From Candidatus Thorarchaeota archaeon (lineage in GTDB: Archaea > Asgardarchaeota > Thorarchaeia > Thorarchaeales > Thorarchaeaceae): a DNA stretch of 32,000 nt. The notes under the pieces are model-generated. The model searched no databases. It was not told the DNA's origin and worked only from the letters and a program-made list of their open reading frames with translations. Both the position numbers and the translations under genes were made by a program. Shown here one piece after another: positions 2 through 25,631 of this stretch. The stretch lies in assembly GCA_008080745.1 (NCBI GenBank), contig SHMX01000003.1, forward strand, positions 390,001 through 422,000, given 5' to 3'. The stretch's first letter is position 1; each line of letters opens with the position of its first letter.

Positions 2-3000
2 GATGTCACAATTGATTATACCATTGTTTCGACAGCATCAGAGGTTCCTATGGGAGAAGTAGTAGGCAATATTACCATAGATGGAACTACAGTAATTTCG
101 CTCACACAATCAGGTACTCAGTGGATTGCCAACCTCACAGGGGCCACGATTGATCTTGGAACACACACAGCTGTGATTCATATTTGGGCTTATGGATACC
201 AATACAGAACAGCTAGTGAAACTCTTGATGTCAGTAATGTCACAACATCCATAGATGTATCTTGGACACCATTGAATCTAACCAGACAATATTCTGGTTA
301 TTATGATGTAGTTGTTGATTACACCTATTATGGAGGAGATGTTCCTGGTTCAGCACTTGTCAATGTTACAATCAATGGACAGACTTTCGGACTCTCATAT
401 TCCACAGGGGCATGGAGAGTATCGATTGCTGCATCAAATCTTGATATTGGAGAGTATTCAGCCTCAATCAGTGCTTGGCTCTATGGATACGCACACCAGA
501 CAAATACTACTTCAACTCTAAATATCACACTTGCAAATACAACAATAGTCACAAATTGGTCCAACTATGATCTGTACTTTACTCATTCCGTAGACCTTAA
601 CATTACATTACTTGATATCTATGCACAGCCAATTACTACAGCTCTTGTTAATGCATCTTATGAAGGAACGAATTATACGCTAAGTTATTTGGGAGGAGGA
701 ACACACCGACTTGTCTTCAATGGATCAGACGGCCTCGGAACCTATCCAATCCAAATTTACACTTGGAATTATGGATTCTATAATGAAACAACATCAATTA
801 CTCTGAACATAGTGCAAACACCCACAAGTATCGATGCATCTACAAAAATACAAGGTTATAGTGAGAGTATTTTATATCATGATGGAAAGGTGACCTACTC
901 AGTTCTGTTTGAAGATATCGATAGCAATCGGATTGATTCAGCCCTAGTGAACTTTACTATAGATGGGATAATTTACAATATGACAGCTCTCGGAAATGGT
1001 AATTACACCATATCCTTTGATGGAGAGGACCTGGGTGTAGGCTCATTCGCTGTTGAACTACACGCATGGAAATACGGATATGCTCCCCAAACCTTGACGC
1101 CAACAATAGTGGTCAATCCAAACCCCACCTATATAGAAATTATCGAAGATACAGAAACGACTATCTTTCTTAATGACACCAGAACAGTAAGAGTACGATA
1201 CATAGACAATCACACTGGAATGATTCTCTCGATTGATACAGAATACATCTCTTGGCCCGGAACTATATCATATAACAATCCTTCAGCAGGAGAGTATGAG
1301 ATTGAGTTCTCAACATTTTACACCCTAGGTAATCATATTCTCAATGTCACATTGGTAAAGGAAAACTACACAATAGGTCAAAAAATATGGGAGATAACCA
1401 TACGCCCAGTCAATACAATATTCATACCTATTGGTGAGTATACCGAATATGAGAATGAAAGTATTACCTTTAGTGCTAATTATACCGATATAGATCATCA
1501 TGAGTTCATCTATTGGGGAAATGTGAGCATTACAATTGATGGTGTAACATATCAGTTAGAATACACCACAAGTGGAATATATAGTCGTACAATACCTCTC
1601 ACTATTGAAGATGGGGATTATACAATCACCTTTGAGGCGATAGCTGACGGATGTGCGACAAATACCACTTATGTTCTTCTTAACCTCCTTACTAAGACGG
1701 ATGTGCAATTAGTTTTAGAAGTACCAAACACAGCTACGGAGGGGAATACTATTGGAATACAAGCTATACTTACTGATGCCGTAGATAATCCAATAACCTT
1801 TGCAACAGTGACCTTTTCCGTGGATGTTCGATTCGAAAATGGTACAGTTAGACAATTTACCTATTCAGACACGACTAATGCAAATGGTGAAGCTAATTGG
1901 GCATACGTAGTACCAGACGGAGGGGAGAATAGAGTGAACTCCCTTACAGTCAATGCGTATTATGATCCCACGGTTGATAACGTAAAGAGCAATTGGGATG
2001 CTTCAGCTAGCGCTGTAGAGATATCGGTCTCTTTACCATGGGATAGACAACTGGTCTCCTTTGCCCTTAGTAGAGAAGGATTGATGATAATTGGAATACT
2101 TCTCATAGTAGGAGCAGTCGCCACATACTATAACAAGTCAGTAAAGCCGAAGAGATTTGCAGAAACAAGAGCCCTTGAGAAACAGCTAAGTGATTTCAAA
2201 GACCTTGAAGGATTACAACATTTCATGGCAGTTTATCTTGACCGTGGAACCTGTGTATTCTACCATCCTTTCACAGAAACACGTATCCAGCCAGACCTGA
2301 TTAGCGGATTCATTGCTGCAATTACCAGTGTCTATGGAGAGATTAAAGGTGATGGCGTCCAAGGAACTCTGGAGGAAATCAATTACCATGGTCTCAAACT
2401 TAATAGCTACAGTGGTAAATATGTGATTGGTATTCTTATTGTAGAGGGAGATATGACACCATTGCTGCGCGATAGATTGCAATGGTTTGTGGAATTATTT
2501 GAGCAACAATACGATGCGGACCTCGATGGTTGGATGGGAGTGATGGACTGCTTCAATCCAGAATGGATAGTATCCAATCTACATGCAGCCTTCAATTATC
2601 ATTGGTTGCTACCTCATCGAGTAGGAGATATAACAAGCATTTCAAAGAAAGATGCAAAATATCTAGAAGTTATTGTTGAGAATCTTGATGAAAAAGGAGA
2701 GATTCGGCTTCAAGATGTTATCGAGCCACTTGCGGAAAGGATGAATATAGATGACTTTGAAGTCTTGGAATATCTTCTTAATATGACCGATCGACAGGTC
2801 CTCGTCCCTATTAGTATAAATATTGTCTTACAAAGAAAGGGACTGGGTCTCGGTGGGGCAAGTGTATCTGATGATTTGGACGATTATGAAGAGGTCTATA
2901 TTGATGAAACCGACCCTGAAGTCGAAACTACACCAGATCCTGATACCGAGGAAACATTGGATGTAGTAAAAGAGCCAATAGAATCCGATTCAGAGATTCC

Positions 3001-3286
3001 AACACCCGAGGAGGGAATAGAGGAAGTAGAATTGGATAAGGCAACTTTACTAGAGACTGAGGAAGAGAAAGATACGGAAATGGAAAAAATTTCTGACCAA
3101 GAGAGTCTTGATTTCGAACTTCCAGATTTCACAGAGGATGAACTTGAACACCATCAAGCACCAATTGAAGATGTTGTTCAAGAAGAGGAGGAACCAGAAG
3201 CTGAAGTGGATCCGAAAGAGGCATTTGCTTCAGAGTTGATAGGCATCTTATCAAAGGAAAAGAAAAAAGAAAAGAAGGAAGAGTGA
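2..3286 (+). CDS. Large single-pass membrane protein, 5'-truncated by the window: extracellular Ig-like repeats, TM, cytoplasmic longin-like domain, winged-helix-like domain, acidic tail
   Basis: The frame is open from position 2 (DVTIDYTIVSTASEVPM...), so the ATG at 50 is probably internal. ~95-100 aa beta-rich repeats (V.Y.D...A.V..TI.G..Y.L...Y...L..G.Y.I...A...GY) carry many N-x-S/T sequons. One hydrophobic stretch GLMIIGILLIVGAVATYY (~2078-2131) is followed by KPKR. Next is a longin-like segment (HFMAVYLDRGTCVFYHPF...DLISGFIAAITSV...KYVIGILIV...LRDRLQWFVELFEQQY), then a D/E-rich tail. Confidence 0.9.
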   Translation, partial: DVTIDYTIVSTASEVPMGEVVGNITIDGTTVISLTQSGTQWIANLTGATIDLGTHTAVIHIWAYGYQYRTASETLDVSNVTTSIDVSWTPLNLTRQYSGYYDVVVDYTYYGGDVPGSALVNVTINGQTFGLSYSTGAWRVSIAASNLDIGEYSASISAWLYGYAHQTNTTSTLNITLANTTIVTNWSNYDLYFTHSVDLNITLLDIYAQPITTALVNASYEGTNYTLSYLGGGTHRLVFNGSDGLGTYPIQIYTWNYGFYNETTSITLNIVQTPTSIDASTKIQGYSESILYHDGKVTYSVLFEDIDSNRIDSALVNFTIDGIIYNMTALGNGNYTISFDGEDLGVGSFAVELHAWKYGYAPQTLTPTIVVNPNPTYIEIIEDTETTIFLNDTRTVRVRYIDNHTGMILSIDTEYISWPGTISYNNPSAGEYEIEFSTFYTLGNHILNVTLVKENYTIGQKIWEITIRPVNTIFIPIGEYTEYENESITFSANYTDIDHHEFIYWGNVSITIDGVTYQLEYTTSGIYSRTIPLTIEDGDYTITFEAIADGCATNTTYVLLNLLTKTDVQLVLEVPNTATEGNTIGIQAILTDAVDNPITFATVTFSVDVRFENGTVRQFTYSDTTNANGEANWAYVVPDGGENRVNSLTVNAYYDPTVDNVKSNWDASASAVEISVSLPWDRQLVSFALSREGLMIIGILLIVGAVATYYNKSVKPKRFAETRALEKQLSDFKDLEGLQHFMAVYLDRGTCVFYHPFTETRIQPDLISGFIAAITSVYGEIKGDGVQGTLEEINYHGLKLNSYSGKYVIGILIVEGDMTPLLRDRLQWFVELFEQQYDADLDGWMGVMDCFNPEWIVSNLHAAFNYHWLLPHRVGDITSISKKDAKYLEVIVENLDEKGEIRLQDVIEPLAERMNIDDFEVLEYLLNMTDRQVLVPISINIVLQRKGLGLGGASVSDDLDDYEEVYIDETDPEVETTPDPDTEETLDVVKEPIESDSEIPTPEEGIEEVELDKATLLETEEEKDTEMEKISDQESLDFELPDFTEDELEHHQAPIEDVVQEEEEPEAEVDPKEAFASELIGILSKEKKKEKKEE

Positions 3287-3352: not shown

Positions 3353-3652
3353 TTGCCATGGCACATTGATAACTACTACATACACAGTGGAGCAGTACTC
3401 TGCGTGGAGATATCTATTCCACTTATTGATTTCCTATTGACTGATATCGACGATGTGAGAAATGCGTGGTTTAGCATGCTCCAATCATTTGTAGATCAAA
3501 ATCCTGGATTCGAGCTATCCTGGGAGATGGAGCCAAGAGATGAAGATGCACTGGTCATTGTTCGAATAGCAAAAATTGGCAAGCTTAAACAATTTACCGA
3601 CCTTGAGAAAAAGGCAGCACTTTCAGCAGCTGATGCGCTATTCGACGAATAA
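3353..3652 (+). CDS. Small hypothetical protein (99 aa, TTG start)
   Basis: The ORF fills the gap between two genes and has a globular alpha/beta-like composition. An AT-rich TATA-like element (AAAACTTAT) lies upstream. No family recognised. Confidence 0.65.
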   Translation: MPWHIDNYYIHSGAVLCVEISIPLIDFLLTDIDDVRNAWFSMLQSFVDQNPGFELSWEMEPRDEDALVIVRIAKIGKLKQFTDLEKKAALSAADALFDE

Positions 3653-3688: not shown

Positions 3689-4948
3689 CTAGCTGACTTT
3701 AGGAATAATACTTTGGCTATTTTGTAAGACTGCAATACGACTCCTAGTTCCAGTTATTTTGCGTGCTAGTTCGAACCCTTCTTGAGGGTCTCGAACCGAA
3801 CTGGCTTGTAATTTGCCTTCAACTATAGCAGGATTCAACCTAGAGCAGACTATGATTTTTCGGTCAGATAGAATTTTCCAGTAGACTCTTGCTCGTTCCA
3901 TACCAAGTTCAAAACCATTCTGTGCCTGAAGCTGAACATCAATCTCAGAGTTAGCAGCTGTAATTGAATTAACAAAACCCTCCGGACCAGGTCCTTCGGG
4001 ACATTCTGCTACCAATAGAATTACACCATTATGTCTTGTGAATTGGAACCCATTATAGAGGCTATTGATACTATCAAAAAGAGTTCTATCATAGGGAGAA
4101 CCACCAGCACATACCACTGCAATATCATATCGTTGTTTCGGAGTAATGGATGCAATACTGTGACACGCATGTGCGCCCTGATTCCAAGCAGTTTTTGGAT
4201 CTCCAACAGATAATGTTGCAAGATTCCCCTGATAATCTTCAACAAGATTTAGAACGAAATCCAGTTCTGCAATCTCTGCGGCTTCTATCATATCCTGACT
4301 AGAATTGCTCATCAAGTCATAACCTCTGAAAGGAGAGGTGGTCTGTAATTTCAAATTAGCACTTACAGATTTGAATCCTGCAACGCCTGGAAGTACAGCA
4401 GTTCGTCCTCCCGTTGCACCTATGAAGAGATCCGGGATAATGGTTCCGACACCTATCCGGAGCTCAGCAGAGAGAAATGAATTATTGAGATATAGAGGTG
4501 TGGAATGGGTGGGTGTATCCCCAATGTGACGAATATTGTTGGAGTGCAAAGAACTATGGATTTCAATGTTCATATCAAACTGGGACGGATAATGTAGTAT
4601 AGAATCAATATTAGAGAGATTAGATTCATTGGTTGAAAAAAGGAAAGTTATCGTTTTTGATCCGGTTGAGGAATTGTTCAATATCCTCACAAGGGTCCGA
4701 GTAACTTGTTGGATTAATCGATTTTGGATATTCTCAACAGCGATACAAATGGAGTTTGCTTCAGATATCAGGCTACTTAGAGGTAAGGATTCAACAGGGT
4801 TTTCAATTGCGTGAAGTATAGATTTTGGAATATCTTGAAATCCGATAACTGAGCGAGGTTGATATTTGTCCATTAGAGATATAGTGCCATTTTCTATCGG
4901 TAGATAGCCTTCGCCATATTTCAAATCTAACCTCATCTTCAAACCCAA
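3689..4948 (-). CDS. LarA (lactate racemase)-fold protein, catalytically degenerate
   Basis: LarA-family scaffold motifs: L.YG, AIENP, GDTPTHSTPLYLN, GATGGRTAVLPGVAG, GGSPYD, GVILLVAECPEG. The canonical catalytic and cofactor residues are substituted. The true start may be the second Met (MRLDL). Confidence 0.8.
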   Translation of the reverse strand: MGLKMRLDLKYGEGYLPIENGTISLMDKYQPRSVIGFQDIPKSILHAIENPVESLPLSSLISEANSICIAVENIQNRLIQQVTRTLVRILNNSSTGSKTITFLFSTNESNLSNIDSILHYPSQFDMNIEIHSSLHSNNIRHIGDTPTHSTPLYLNNSFLSAELRIGVGTIIPDLFIGATGGRTAVLPGVAGFKSVSANLKLQTTSPFRGYDLMSNSSQDMIEAAEIAELDFVLNLVEDYQGNLATLSVGDPKTAWNQGAHACHSIASITPKQRYDIAVVCAGGSPYDRTLFDSINSLYNGFQFTRHNGVILLVAECPEGPGPEGFVNSITAANSEIDVQLQAQNGFELGMERARVYWKILSDRKIIVCSRLNPAIVEGKLQASSVRDPQEGFELARKITGTRSRIAVLQNSQSIIPKVS

Positions 4949-5045
4949 TGATAACGTTCAGCTCTTGCCTCTTAAGGTTAGCATTATTAGGGTATCACAT
5001 ACTTGATGGGCGGGGATATTTGTACAGAAAAGAAGTTTCATAACT

Positions 5046-5795
5046 ATGAAAAGAAAGGCCCGAACACCGATGAAGCTCCAAAAGACAGACCTCATATTTT
5101 TATTTGTCCTGAGTTTAATTGGTTTGTATTCTCTCATTTCCTTTATGTTCCCAAATACATTCAATCTGATAATTACAAGTTATGAAATCGTTGTGTCTTT
5201 CTCATTGTTCGTGGGATATCCTGGAGCATTTGTGATTTCGCTTCTTGGAAATGCAACCATCTTATTCCCATTTCCCTATATTGGAGTACCGTTCATATTA
5301 GGCGGAATACGGGATGGTGTATCTGGAGTGTTTTTGTATGACCCCATCATTATTGGAATAGTAGCAGGAATAGGGGCTACAATTGGTGAGATGACAGGAT
5401 ATCTAATTGGATATGCAGGGGGATGTCTACTTGATCAAGAAAACGTTTCAGGATTTCGTAGATATGCAGATAGTCACCCTCGTTCTATCCCACTCCTAAT
5501 ATGGTTTTTAGCAGCAACACCAATTCCTGATGATGTTTTACTCGTTCCTTTGGGAGCATCAAAATACCATTGGATGAAAGTGCTAATACCACAACTGATT
5601 GGAAAAATCATGTTCCTTCTAACAATAGCTTGGGCAGGACGGTTTGGTTTAGACTGGATTGGCGAACTAATCCTGTCATCGGACCCACTAAATTGGATGA
5701 CTAGGATAACCGAGATAGTCGCCATCCTGATGGTTGTGATAGTGATCTACCTAATGATTAGATTCGATTGGAATAAACATGCAACCAGCAGCTAA
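5046..5795 (+). CDS. DedA/VTT (SNARE-associated, Tvp38-like) family membrane protein
   Basis: Motifs LGNATILFPFP, GIGATIGEMTGYLIGY, AATPIPDD.LL.PLG...Y...K...GK, and multiple TM segments. Confidence 0.85.
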   Translation: MKRKARTPMKLQKTDLIFLFVLSLIGLYSLISFMFPNTFNLIITSYEIVVSFSLFVGYPGAFVISLLGNATILFPFPYIGVPFILGGIRDGVSGVFLYDPIIIGIVAGIGATIGEMTGYLIGYAGGCLLDQENVSGFRRYADSHPRSIPLLIWFLAATPIPDDVLLVPLGASKYHWMKVLIPQLIGKIMFLLTIAWAGRFGLDWIGELILSSDPLNWMTRITEIVAILMVVIVIYLMIRFDWNKHATSS

Positions 5796-6787
5796 ACTTC
5801 CTCATCGTCCTTTGTTCTCTGGAAACCCTCTAATATTGCTCGTCCAAAATTCGTGAGAGATACTAGACCGCCTCTAAGGAGATCATTGATGGCAGCAAGG
5901 TTAATTCCACCTTTGAAAGAAGCTGGCAACTGAATCATACCAACTTGGTTCATCTCGATTAGAAGTTTAACGAATGCACCCATCCTATGTAAAGCAAAGA
6001 TACCCACACATTTGCTGAATGCACGTTTGGTTCCTTCAATTATTGCCTGTCTTGGATCCTCAAATTCTACTAATGCCCGTTCAATTTCCAAGAAGGCACA
6101 ACACATGGTCTGTGATTCTTCATCTGGAGAGTCCATAAAGTGTCCAGGTGCCTGAAGTGAAAAAGGGTCGAGGAGATAATTGTTAATCTTAAGACGTGGT
6201 TCTTCTTCAGTGATATTCCACCATGCTTGAAGATGAGCATCTGTTAGTGGCTGAACCTCAAGACCAGAATCCACTTCATGATCACCCAGATTTCCATCAG
6301 GTAAAAATGAATGCCATCCTGGAATCATCCGAAACCCTTGTTTTTTCCCATCCTTACTAAACAGGTCCAATCGTCTACTGCAATAATGAACAAGGTCATA
6401 AATTGCATGATTTCCATCCTTATCTAGGAATACAAATATGGGCTCATAATCAGCCTCATGGGCTGGAACAGCTTGATAATCCCATACATAGAGATATTGC
6501 AGACATTTCGCTCCACGCCAACCATTCTGTTCAATAACTCGCCCAAACACGCCAACGAATTCAGTTTTGTTTAGGGCATCGACTGTTTCTTCAGGAATAA
6601 TCTTACCGAGAGTCAATGCTAGTGTCTTATCTCCTGAAAGAACACCAGATGTCCTAGGTAGATATTGTTTTAGTAACTTCTCATCATATTTTGCCTTGAG
6701 ACCAGAACCACACTGTTGAAAAGACATGTCAGCCGGAGACACTTTCATGTGAAGGATATCGCGAAATTTCTTCAATACCGATTGCAC
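5792..6787 (-). CDS. Hypothetical protein with Vps62/NPP1-like motif (QYLYVW...HEADYEP...H...GWHS)
   Basis: Long ORF with a GTG start (ATG at MKVSP is an alternative). The motif spacing resembles the H-x-x-D-W-E core of the Vps62/NPP1-like superfamily. It overlaps the DedA stop by 4 nt. Confidence 0.7.
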   Translation of the reverse strand: MQSVLKKFRDILHMKVSPADMSFQQCGSGLKAKYDEKLLKQYLPRTSGVLSGDKTLALTLGKIIPEETVDALNKTEFVGVFGRVIEQNGWRGAKCLQYLYVWDYQAVPAHEADYEPIFVFLDKDGNHAIYDLVHYCSRRLDLFSKDGKKQGFRMIPGWHSFLPDGNLGDHEVDSGLEVQPLTDAHLQAWWNITEEEPRLKINNYLLDPFSLQAPGHFMDSPDEESQTMCCAFLEIERALVEFEDPRQAIIEGTKRAFSKCVGIFALHRMGAFVKLLIEMNQVGMIQLPASFKGGINLAAINDLLRGGLVSLTNFGRAILEGFQRTKDDEEV

Positions 6788-25304: not shown

Positions 25305-25631
25305 ATGGCAAAAGATATCTTCGCTGTGATGATATTGGAAGAAGACACTGGTCAGCCTTTATACACCTATTTCATAGATCCACAATTGAAGAGGAATCCG
25401 GGTCTTATTCCTCAGAAACTTAGAACCAAAGAAATTCGCATGGTTCATGTATTGGGAAAACATGTAGTCTTCACTGCACTTGTTGCACCAGAAACTACTG
25501 GTGTTAAAGAGAAATTAGAAAAGCTCAGAGAACGTATAGAAAAGGTATTCCCTGAAGGTCTGAAGAGAGGGAAGGGAAATTTCGCAGATATGGTGATTCT
25601 GGAAAATATCTCTCAAGAGGTCTTACTATAG
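25305..25631 (+). CDS. Standalone longin-like protein
   Basis: The pattern beta-beta-(alpha)-beta-beta-alpha-alpha is visible: IFAVMILEEDTGQPLYTYF...IRMVHVLGKHVVFTALV...VKEKLEKLRERIEKVF...ILENISQEVLL. Confidence 0.65.
   Translation: MAKDIFAVMILEEDTGQPLYTYFIDPQLKRNPGLIPQKLRTKEIRMVHVLGKHVVFTALVAPETTGVKEKLEKLRERIEKVFPEGLKRGKGNFADMVILENISQEVLL

Follow-up and report, generated by a model that had tools for sequence, protein, structure and literature searches.

A Thorarchaeota surface glycoprotein with a cytoplasmic longin and winged-helix module

The stretch of DNA analysed here (the window) comprises 32,000 nucleotides of a Thorarchaeota metagenome-assembled genome (MAG; GenBank assembly GCA_008080745.1, contig SHMX01000003.1; G000:C3:390001-422000 in the numbering used below) and begins inside a gene for a large surface protein. 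We find that this protein is a type I surface glycoprotein with repeats outside the cell, one transmembrane (TM) helix and, on the inner side of the membrane, a longin-fold domain followed by a winged helix (wH). An earlier interpretation made from the letters of the window alone (hereafter the sequence-only reading) had suggested this layout, and the completed gene, its topology and the modelled folds confirm it. The junction between the TM helix and the cytoplasmic module is conserved among relatives of the protein, which occur across the phylum and in multiple copies per genome. By analogy with characterised longin and roadblock proteins, we consider the chances about even that the longin-wH cassette is held at the membrane as a platform on which a common cytoplasmic partner docks, the most plausible candidates being a small GTPase and a GTPase fused to a roadblock/longin domain.

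To our knowledge, almost nothing has been established about what the GTPases and roadblock/longin families of Asgard archaea connect to, or about how Asgard GTPases, most of which lack a lipid anchor, reach membranes. The family described here offers a concrete physical connection, open to testing, between the cell exterior and this machinery. In Asgard genomes, small GTPases number in the dozens and roadblock/longin families more than 100 (Liu et al., bioRxiv 10.1101/2020.10.19.343400).

Gene structure, ectodomain and membrane topology

In the window the gene occupies positions 2..3286 (+), where an open reading frame (ORF) scan finds an open frame with no 5' end. The sequence-only reading had pointed to the missing end, and DNA upstream of the window supplies it. 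The whole gene (G000:C3:387737-393286; L004:237-5786) encodes 1849 residues and starts 2263 nucleotides before the window (G000:C3:387737), so the window holds the 3' 1094 of 1849 codons (60%). The N-terminus of the completed protein is a Sec-type signal peptide, MKRAFLSIMAIVLLTVTIASPQ. The closest relatives identified among public genomes are Thorarchaeota/Promethearchaeota MAGs, and the stretch is present in two marine-sediment DNA runs, possibly the source of the window DNA, with no RNA run among the holders.

Everything encoded upstream of the TM helix in the window (2..2077, +) belongs to an extracellular stalk. Iterated self-search of the protein identified at least six repeats of ~95 residues between residues 649 and 1314 of the full-length sequence, and in window coordinates repeat units lie at -52..232, 242-541, 545-817, 842-1105 and 1436-1678 (+). 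The ectodomain contains 54 N-x-S/T sequons, compared with 24.4 ± 4.2 in composition-preserving shuffles (z = 7), whereas the 384 cytoplasmic residues contain two, sequon density being sevenfold higher on the N-terminal side of the TM helix. The repeats and the sequon excess of the sequence-only reading thus stand, and its description of the repeats as Ig-like is probable: the matches of the ectodomain to Ig-like Pfam families are all sub-threshold (Big_1, E 0.003; Big_13, E 0.026), and the precomputed families of homologues (CarboxypepD_reg, Invasin_D3 and MG4) are beta-sandwich folds. Sequence search of the PDB with the ectodomain returned no match. The head of the protein (full-length residues 28-560) matched neither a Pfam family nor a PDB sequence. 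A language-model feature search of the ESM Atlas with the same head region placed it nearest to archaeal 'Lectin_like' (PF18560) clusters, at a score of 0.84 that lies below the 0.9 level and is a lead only.

The single TM helix, GLMIIGILLIVGAVATYY, is encoded at 2078..2131 (+; P0001 aa 693-710), exactly where the sequence-only reading had placed it. It is the sole internal hydrophobic segment and is followed at once by a stretch rich in lysine and arginine. Together with the signal peptide and the sequon asymmetry, these features establish an N-out/C-in type I topology. The sequence features thereby agree on a single-pass type I glycoprotein, with a signal peptide, one TM helix and a cytoplasmic C-terminus.

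Folds of the cytoplasmic module and its tail

The AlphaFold2 model of the cytoplasmic module, built with an alignment (A1) of 109 of the 475 relatives described below, has a predicted local distance difference test (pLDDT) value of 87.6 and a predicted template-modelling (pTM) score of 0.83. A single-sequence AlphaFold2 run on residues 685-965 was uninformative (pLDDT 43). DSSP assigns to the module model a helix at residues 4-27, strands at 28-35 and 41-46, a helix at 54-72, strands at 80-85, 88-94 and 98-105, and helices at 110-131 and 143-159. The first of these is a basic juxtamembrane helix (2132..2212, +) in which P6, F22 and D24 are conserved and which carries a positive net charge in 94% of family members. 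Module residues 28-159 (2213..2608, +), arranged beta-beta-alpha-beta-beta-beta-alpha-alpha, form a longin-fold domain with the five-stranded antiparallel sheet of that fold. This domain is the best-conserved part of the protein, with the pattern P-x-LISGF-xx-A in helix alpha1 and L..F...FE..Y...L..W.G in alpha2; the near-invariant residues of the module are G39, L56, G59, F60, A63, E82, Y85, G95, F119, F123, E124, G136 and F141.

Two independent structure searches support the assignment. Foldseek against the PDB matched the module model to AP sigma, the VAMP7 longin domain, Fuzzy, Prometheoarchaeum Roadblock3, TRAPP, LAMTOR, MglB and NPRL chains. VIA-align, run on 48,161 chains, returned 70 at Z ≥ 8, with Fuzzy LD1 (7q3d_C, Z 13.1), VAMP7 (4afi_B, 12.4), Sec22 (3egd_C, 12.1) and AP5 sigma (12.1) at the top, followed among others by sedlin (11.7), the Loki Roadblock-Longin protein 8yqg_B (11.4), Mon1/Ccz1 (~10.5) and NPRL (8fw5_C, 10.1). 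Nearly all matches from both searches are longin or roadblock proteins. The longin chains align over model residues 27-158 with a root-mean-square deviation of 2.5-3.4 Å and include both C-terminal helices, whereas the roadblock chains (MglB, Z 11.8; MK-D1 Roadblock3, Z 11.7) cover only residues 25-130 and leave their own N-terminal helix unmatched. The module does have an N-terminal helix at residues 4-27, yet the roadblock chains align only from residue 24-25. Therefore, the domain is of longin type.

Neither the target nor the 109 module sequences reached the cut-off of any Pfam family; the curated longin families (Longin, Fuz_longin_1, Sedlin and Clat_adaptor_s among others) gave no match at E ≤ 1 in the target or at E ≤ 0.01 in the 109 members, and Robl_LC7 matched neither. 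The relation to longins is therefore detectable by structure alone. Searches of the PDB by sequence with the module returned nothing significant, either with the single sequence or with a profile (best E 0.16). A shape search of the ESM Atlas with the whole module found only Promethearchaeota 'hypothetical protein' clusters at TM-scores of 0.76-0.79. In the same search, large bacterial OmpA-family and SH3_3 clusters matched model residues 5-177 at a TM-score of ~0.5, and bacterial membrane proteins may carry a comparable unit of a helix and a roadblock/longin-like domain.

Behind the longin domain, and packed on it in the model, lies a winged-helix domain (2609..2839, +). Its elements are helices at 172-183, 193-204 and 208-220, a short strand at 190-191 and a strand at 224-226, the final wing strand being replaced by a short helix at 229-235. 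Among the VIA-align matches listed, one alone (6ec8_A, Z 8.9) covers residues 157-236. When the wH segments of the 109 members were compared with Pfam, they matched mostly the helix-turn-helix (HTH) clan, with NirdL-like_HTH found in 22 of 109 (best E 8e-6) and further matches to HTH_22, HTH_24, HTH_6, TnsA_C, HTH_AsnC-type, HTH_5 and MCM_C, all below the Pfam cut-offs. The best PDB profile match is the C-terminal wH of MCM (2m45, E 0.16). On the order of elements and these sub-threshold matches we accept the winged helix, which the sequence-only reading had set at ~2640-2810; its longin estimate of ~2213-2600 likewise agrees with the modelled 2213-2608, and its coordinates were good to ~30 nucleotides against the model-derived boundaries. 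Its wider description of the longin fold as a class of GTPase platforms expanded in Asgard archaea suits a module that has this fold and a family that is strongly expanded. With the cytoplasmic C-terminus deduced above, the module models as longin plus wH inside the cell, and the sequence-only reading thereby withstands the refuting conditions that it had set itself.

A winged helix at the inner face of the membrane raises the possibility of a membrane-tethered one-component transcription regulator, in which the wH would bind DNA at the membrane, as in the bacterial ToxR and CadC, while the longin domain dimerised or sensed. The Lrp/AsnC-type matches within the HTH clan would suit such a protein, as would the label 'DNA-binding Lrp family transcriptional regulator' that JGI attaches to some homologues, and a membrane-bound regulator can reach DNA in archaea, which have no nuclear envelope. 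The recognition helix H3, however, has a net charge of -4 in the target and of zero or below in 88% of members, which makes DNA binding unlikely; the target's wH as a whole carries -5. Within the module, conservation is also lowest in the wH (35% column identity), the polyacidic tail of 140 residues that follows would repel DNA, and dozens of near-identical modules in a genome would lack target specificity. We therefore regard a DNA-binding role as very improbable.

The tail itself (2852..3283, +), of ~140 residues and 40% aspartate plus glutamate, is presumably disordered. Near its end lies a conserved amphipathic motif, FASELIGIL in the target (3224..3250, +). Of 43 close representatives, 40 carry the consensus F-[VIL]-x-[DE]-V-E-x-L-L in their tails, 10 of these in two copies, and only two matches were counted among the 102,204 residues of the ectodomains. 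The core of the motif agrees with the acidic-dileucine pattern of eukaryotes, [DE]xxxL[LI], a resemblance only. If the resemblance were meaningful, the tail motif and module might form a sorting or turnover cassette, read by ESCRT, coat-like or adaptor-like machinery that would deliver the protein to protrusions or extracellular vesicles, or remove it. That AP sigma, which binds dileucine motifs in eukaryotes, is among the best structural matches of the longin domain would be in keeping with this, and the wH domains of ESCRT-II are protein-protein modules. The motif is nevertheless confined to one subfamily, more distant members having different tails or none, and the target copy has Ile-Leu where the consensus has Leu-Leu. 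Likeness in so short a motif is weak evidence, and we know of no adaptor complex in Asgard archaea. Such a cassette appears distinctly unlikely to us. A TAA flagged within the matched region of several relatives is the natural stop of tail-less paralogues, directly after the wH.

Family distribution and candidate partners

Exhaustive searching of 1.84 billion cluster representatives with HMMER yielded 475 relatives at E<1e-3 (144 at E<1e-10), counted as clusters at 50% identity. In nearly all of them the match covers ~230 residues near the C-terminus of a protein of 500-3000 residues. In 125 representatives the module is preceded by 60 or more residues; 115 of these have a TM helix right before it, and 108 have exactly one TM helix. 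The A1 profile matched 191 of 201 genomes sampled evenly across the phylum and all 85 of the high-quality genomes, so that the survey of Asgard genomes proposed with the sequence-only reading yields a near-universal distribution; matches were scored to at most 13 per genome, a figure that is not a receptor count. Ectodomains differ across the family while the longin domain stays most conserved, and even among orthologues the heads are only ~35-40% identical, compared with 60-67% for the module. The relatives are labelled 'hypothetical' in the databases, and because the family is in addition invisible to Pfam it is missing from sequence-based lists of eukaryotic signature proteins.

In the target's own genome the A1 profile finds ~28 ORFs of three kinds. 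Five encode giant type I proteins: the target, a protein of 3040 residues encoded just upstream and ORFs of 1647, 2149 and 1579 residues. The 3040-residue ORF (G000:C3:378406-387528; L003:6406-15528) lies on the same strand and is a tandem paralogue of the target; the two heads, of ~560 residues each, are 56% identical, and the layout is the same, with a signal peptide, a TM helix at residues 2701-2724 and a longin-like and wH-like tail. That cytoplasmic tail is strongly diverged, scores only 9 bits against the family profile and ends in an additional HTH-like segment. The paralogue's stalk is much longer than the target's. The second kind comprises six polytopic membrane proteins that bear the same longin type at their cytoplasmic C-terminus. 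One of them (G000:C6:164058-165722, L088) has 11 TM helices and a near-cutoff match to the major facilitator superfamily (MFS; 33.2 vs 33.4 bits), and the other five (L089-L093) have 4-6 TM helices and no assigned family. In the third kind, ~15 soluble proteins, the longin domain is N-terminal, and some of them also have a wH (for example one of 287 residues with a weak HTH_47 match). Genes for such soluble longin (+wH) proteins also stand as adjoining tandem pairs (G000:C3:177940-179759 and G000:C7:43722-45622), an arrangement that recalls heterodimers such as NPRL2/NPRL3. The second longin named in the sequence-only reading, a 108-residue ORF at 25305-25631 of the window, has no Pfam match and is absent from the A1-profile matches in this genome.

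As a docking platform the protein would probably work as follows. The ~560-residue head on its stalk of sequon-rich ~95-residue repeats would contact the outside, the fast-evolving ectodomain serving adhesion or ligand binding. The juxtamembrane helix, longin domain and wH form one rigid, strongly conserved module; held at the inner membrane face, this invariant cassette would dock one common cytoplasmic partner. That the same longin type is present on an MFS-type protein and on proteins of 4-6 TM helices would suit a docking function that membrane proteins use more generally. The longin and roadblock platforms characterised so far all point, by analogy, to a small GTPase or a roadblock/longin domain fused to a GTPase as the most likely partner, in which case the surface protein could mark membrane sites of action for GTPases that lack a lipid anchor. 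The module may also pair with itself: helix alpha1 has a face of small residues (S58-G59...A63...S66), which suggests that two modules associate by this central helix, much as the subunits of roadblock/longin dimers do. Dimerisation through the central helix of roadblock/longin proteins has been described (PMC10933270).

Pairing of this kind could equally serve a purely structural purpose. The modules might pair or polymerise under the membrane, or bind a cytoskeleton, and so space the glycoprotein coat of a cell without an S-layer, with neither a GTPase nor signalling involved. A cassette that is joined to a variety of ectodomains and recurs many times within a genome would suit an anchor of this sort, and the small residues conserved on one face of the central helix are in keeping with the interface through which roadblock/longin proteins usually dimerise. 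Tail-less paralogues stop right after the wH, which implies that TM helix, longin and wH are self-sufficient, and no GTPase is linked to these genes in this genome. Against such an anchor, however, the same longin type is found on an MFS transporter and on small polytopic proteins, which are unlikely parts of a coat, and soluble longin-wH paralogues exist. On balance we consider a structural anchor unlikely, but less so than a sorting cassette. If the family did form a lattice, or a sorting device, it would explain how Asgard surface coats are organised.

The docking of a GTPase, to return to the platform proposed above, is an analogy from the fold to which relatives of the target add a patchy genomic hint. 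The genome encodes between ~35 (Pfam Ras/Arf) and 44 (custom hidden Markov model, HMM) small-GTPase ORFs. We examined 20 loci (347 kb) around family members from other Asgard families and counted nine GTPase ORFs against 4.8-5.8 expected, the lower value being derived from this genome's GTPase density and the higher from the MK-D1 density quoted in PMC10933270. In L068, L070, L073 and L074, and twice in L075, a GTPase gene is divergent from the relative's gene and lies 0.06-2.6 kb away from its 5' end. The first four (L068:14466-15662, L070:17563-18756, L073:4187-5293 and L074:15205-16323) encode Ras/Rab-like GTPases of ~370-400 residues with an N-terminal extension of ~190 residues, which Pfam recognises as Roadblock/LC7 in L073 only. 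A divergent Roadblock-Rab-like GTPase neighbour is found in four of seven sampled relatives from one Loki-type family. The two in L075 (L075:14020-14586 and L075:18749-19291) are plain small GTPases and make up two receptor-GTPase pairs. The target's genome has no orthologue of the Loki-type Roadblock-Rab protein and encodes only a Rab-roadblock fusion in reverse order (G000:C1:572753-574144).

Several observations weigh against a GTPase as the partner. The five TM-longin-wH genes of this genome all lack a small-GTPase gene within 10 kb, the one nearest to the target being 63 kb away, and no A1-profile match in the genome carries a fused GTPase domain. The enrichment in the 20 loci is not significant (Poisson P 0.06-0.13), and four of the adjacent cases (L068, L070, L073 and L074) are mutual orthologues. 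No catalytic or GTPase-contact residues can be assigned in the module. Moreover, SNARE motifs, adaptor peptides and coat subunits are ligands of longins as well, and a shared fold is not a shared function. The coupling to small-GTPase signalling that the sequence-only reading had put forward is therefore not borne out by gene linkage, either in this genome or, at a significant level, in the 20 loci sampled. Tran et al. 2024 (PMC10933270) note that GTPase genes and roadblock/longin genes do not, as a rule, share operons.

A bolder version of the platform can be entertained only tentatively. In it, TM-longin-wH proteins would constitute a prokaryotic class of transmembrane receptors or cargo receptors that connects the cell surface with the eukaryote-like machinery of small GTPases and membrane remodelling. 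Their platform would recruit Rab-, Arf- or Rag-like GTPases fused to roadblock/longin domains to defined sites on the membrane, and their dileucine-like tail motif would be read by longin-type adaptors, so that the class would prefigure the receptor-to-GTPase signalling and the cargo sorting of eukaryotes. Were the partner indeed a GTPase, the family would give the GTPase network of Asgard archaea its first transmembrane input.

A second candidate partner is encoded next to the target. A conserved gene for a protein of 99 residues and no assigned fold (3353..3652, +) begins 66 nucleotides downstream on the same strand and is single-copy. The protein shows 68% mean column identity with 14 invariant residues and gave no usable match in the Atlas search. 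The gene is restricted to the target's Thorarchaeota family, with one weak match in a sister family, and adjoins the receptor orthologue in 26 of 27 judgeable loci, making it a possible operon partner. This adjacency is weak evidence because the whole neighbourhood is syntenic: the genes that follow at 3689-6787 of the window, a LarA-like gene (Lar_N + LarA_C), a VTT/DedA membrane protein and a 331-residue ORF without a Pfam family, also keep their association with the receptor gene across Thorarchaeota.

Comparison with known systems

The module has its phylum and fold in common with soluble Asgard longin and Roadblock-Longin proteins such as 8yqg_B (Z 11.4), of which those published are cytoplasmic or fused to GTPases. 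The text of Tran et al. 2024 on soluble roadblock/longin proteins and GTPase fusions never uses the word 'transmembrane' (PMC10933270). Liu et al. list 130 roadblock/longin asCOGs, report NPRL2-like longin families in Thor and Loki genomes as well as fusions of NPRL2-like longins to two-component domains, and mention no transmembrane or receptor form in their text (bioRxiv 10.1101/2020.10.19.343400). Searching the literature, we came across no account of a longin-wH surface protein anchored by a TM helix, although this does not prove that none exists.

ToxR and CadC resemble the target as single-pass membrane proteins with a cytoplasmic winged helix. Their winged HTH is N-terminal, however, and has a basic recognition helix of OmpR type with no longin domain, whereas the target's recognition helix is acidic.

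Roadblock platforms (MglB, LAMTOR2/3 and the Asgard structures 7f8m, 7yh1 and 9jue) share the core sheet and central helix with the module (Z 9.7-11.8), but their match ends with residue 130 and the extra C-terminal helix of the target is of longin type. Ragulator is comparable as a GTPase platform held at a membrane; its anchor is the lipidated LAMTOR1 and not a TM glycoprotein.

NPRL2 and NPRL3, to which the sequence-only reading had likened the module, have a longin domain followed by C-terminal parts that contain winged helices. This likeness holds at the level of the fold (8fw5_C, Z 10.1), but NPRL ranks below Fuzzy, VAMP7, Sec22 and AP sigma, the NPR2/NPR3 Pfam families match neither the target nor the 109 members, and no arginine finger can be assigned. 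The NPRL proteins are soluble, contain a TINI domain, for which the ~210 residues of the module leave no room, and form a heterodimer that associates with DEPDC5, whereas the target is anchored by its TM helix.

The eukaryotic longins (LD1 of the tri-longin RabGEFs Fuzzy, Mon1 and Ccz1, VAMP7, Sec22, Ykt6, the N-termini of AP sigma and mu, sedlin/TRAPPC2 and SRX) have the same fold over ~130 residues at Z 11-13. The target differs from them in having no detectable membership in their sequence families, the Synaptobrevin and SNARE families of Pfam included, and in being a type I glycoprotein whose longin domain directly follows a TM helix and lies at the cytoplasmic C-terminal end. In the longin SNAREs VAMP7, Sec22 and Ykt6 an N-terminal longin domain is followed by the SNARE motif and a C-terminal membrane anchor, whereas the target reverses this order and lacks a SNARE motif.

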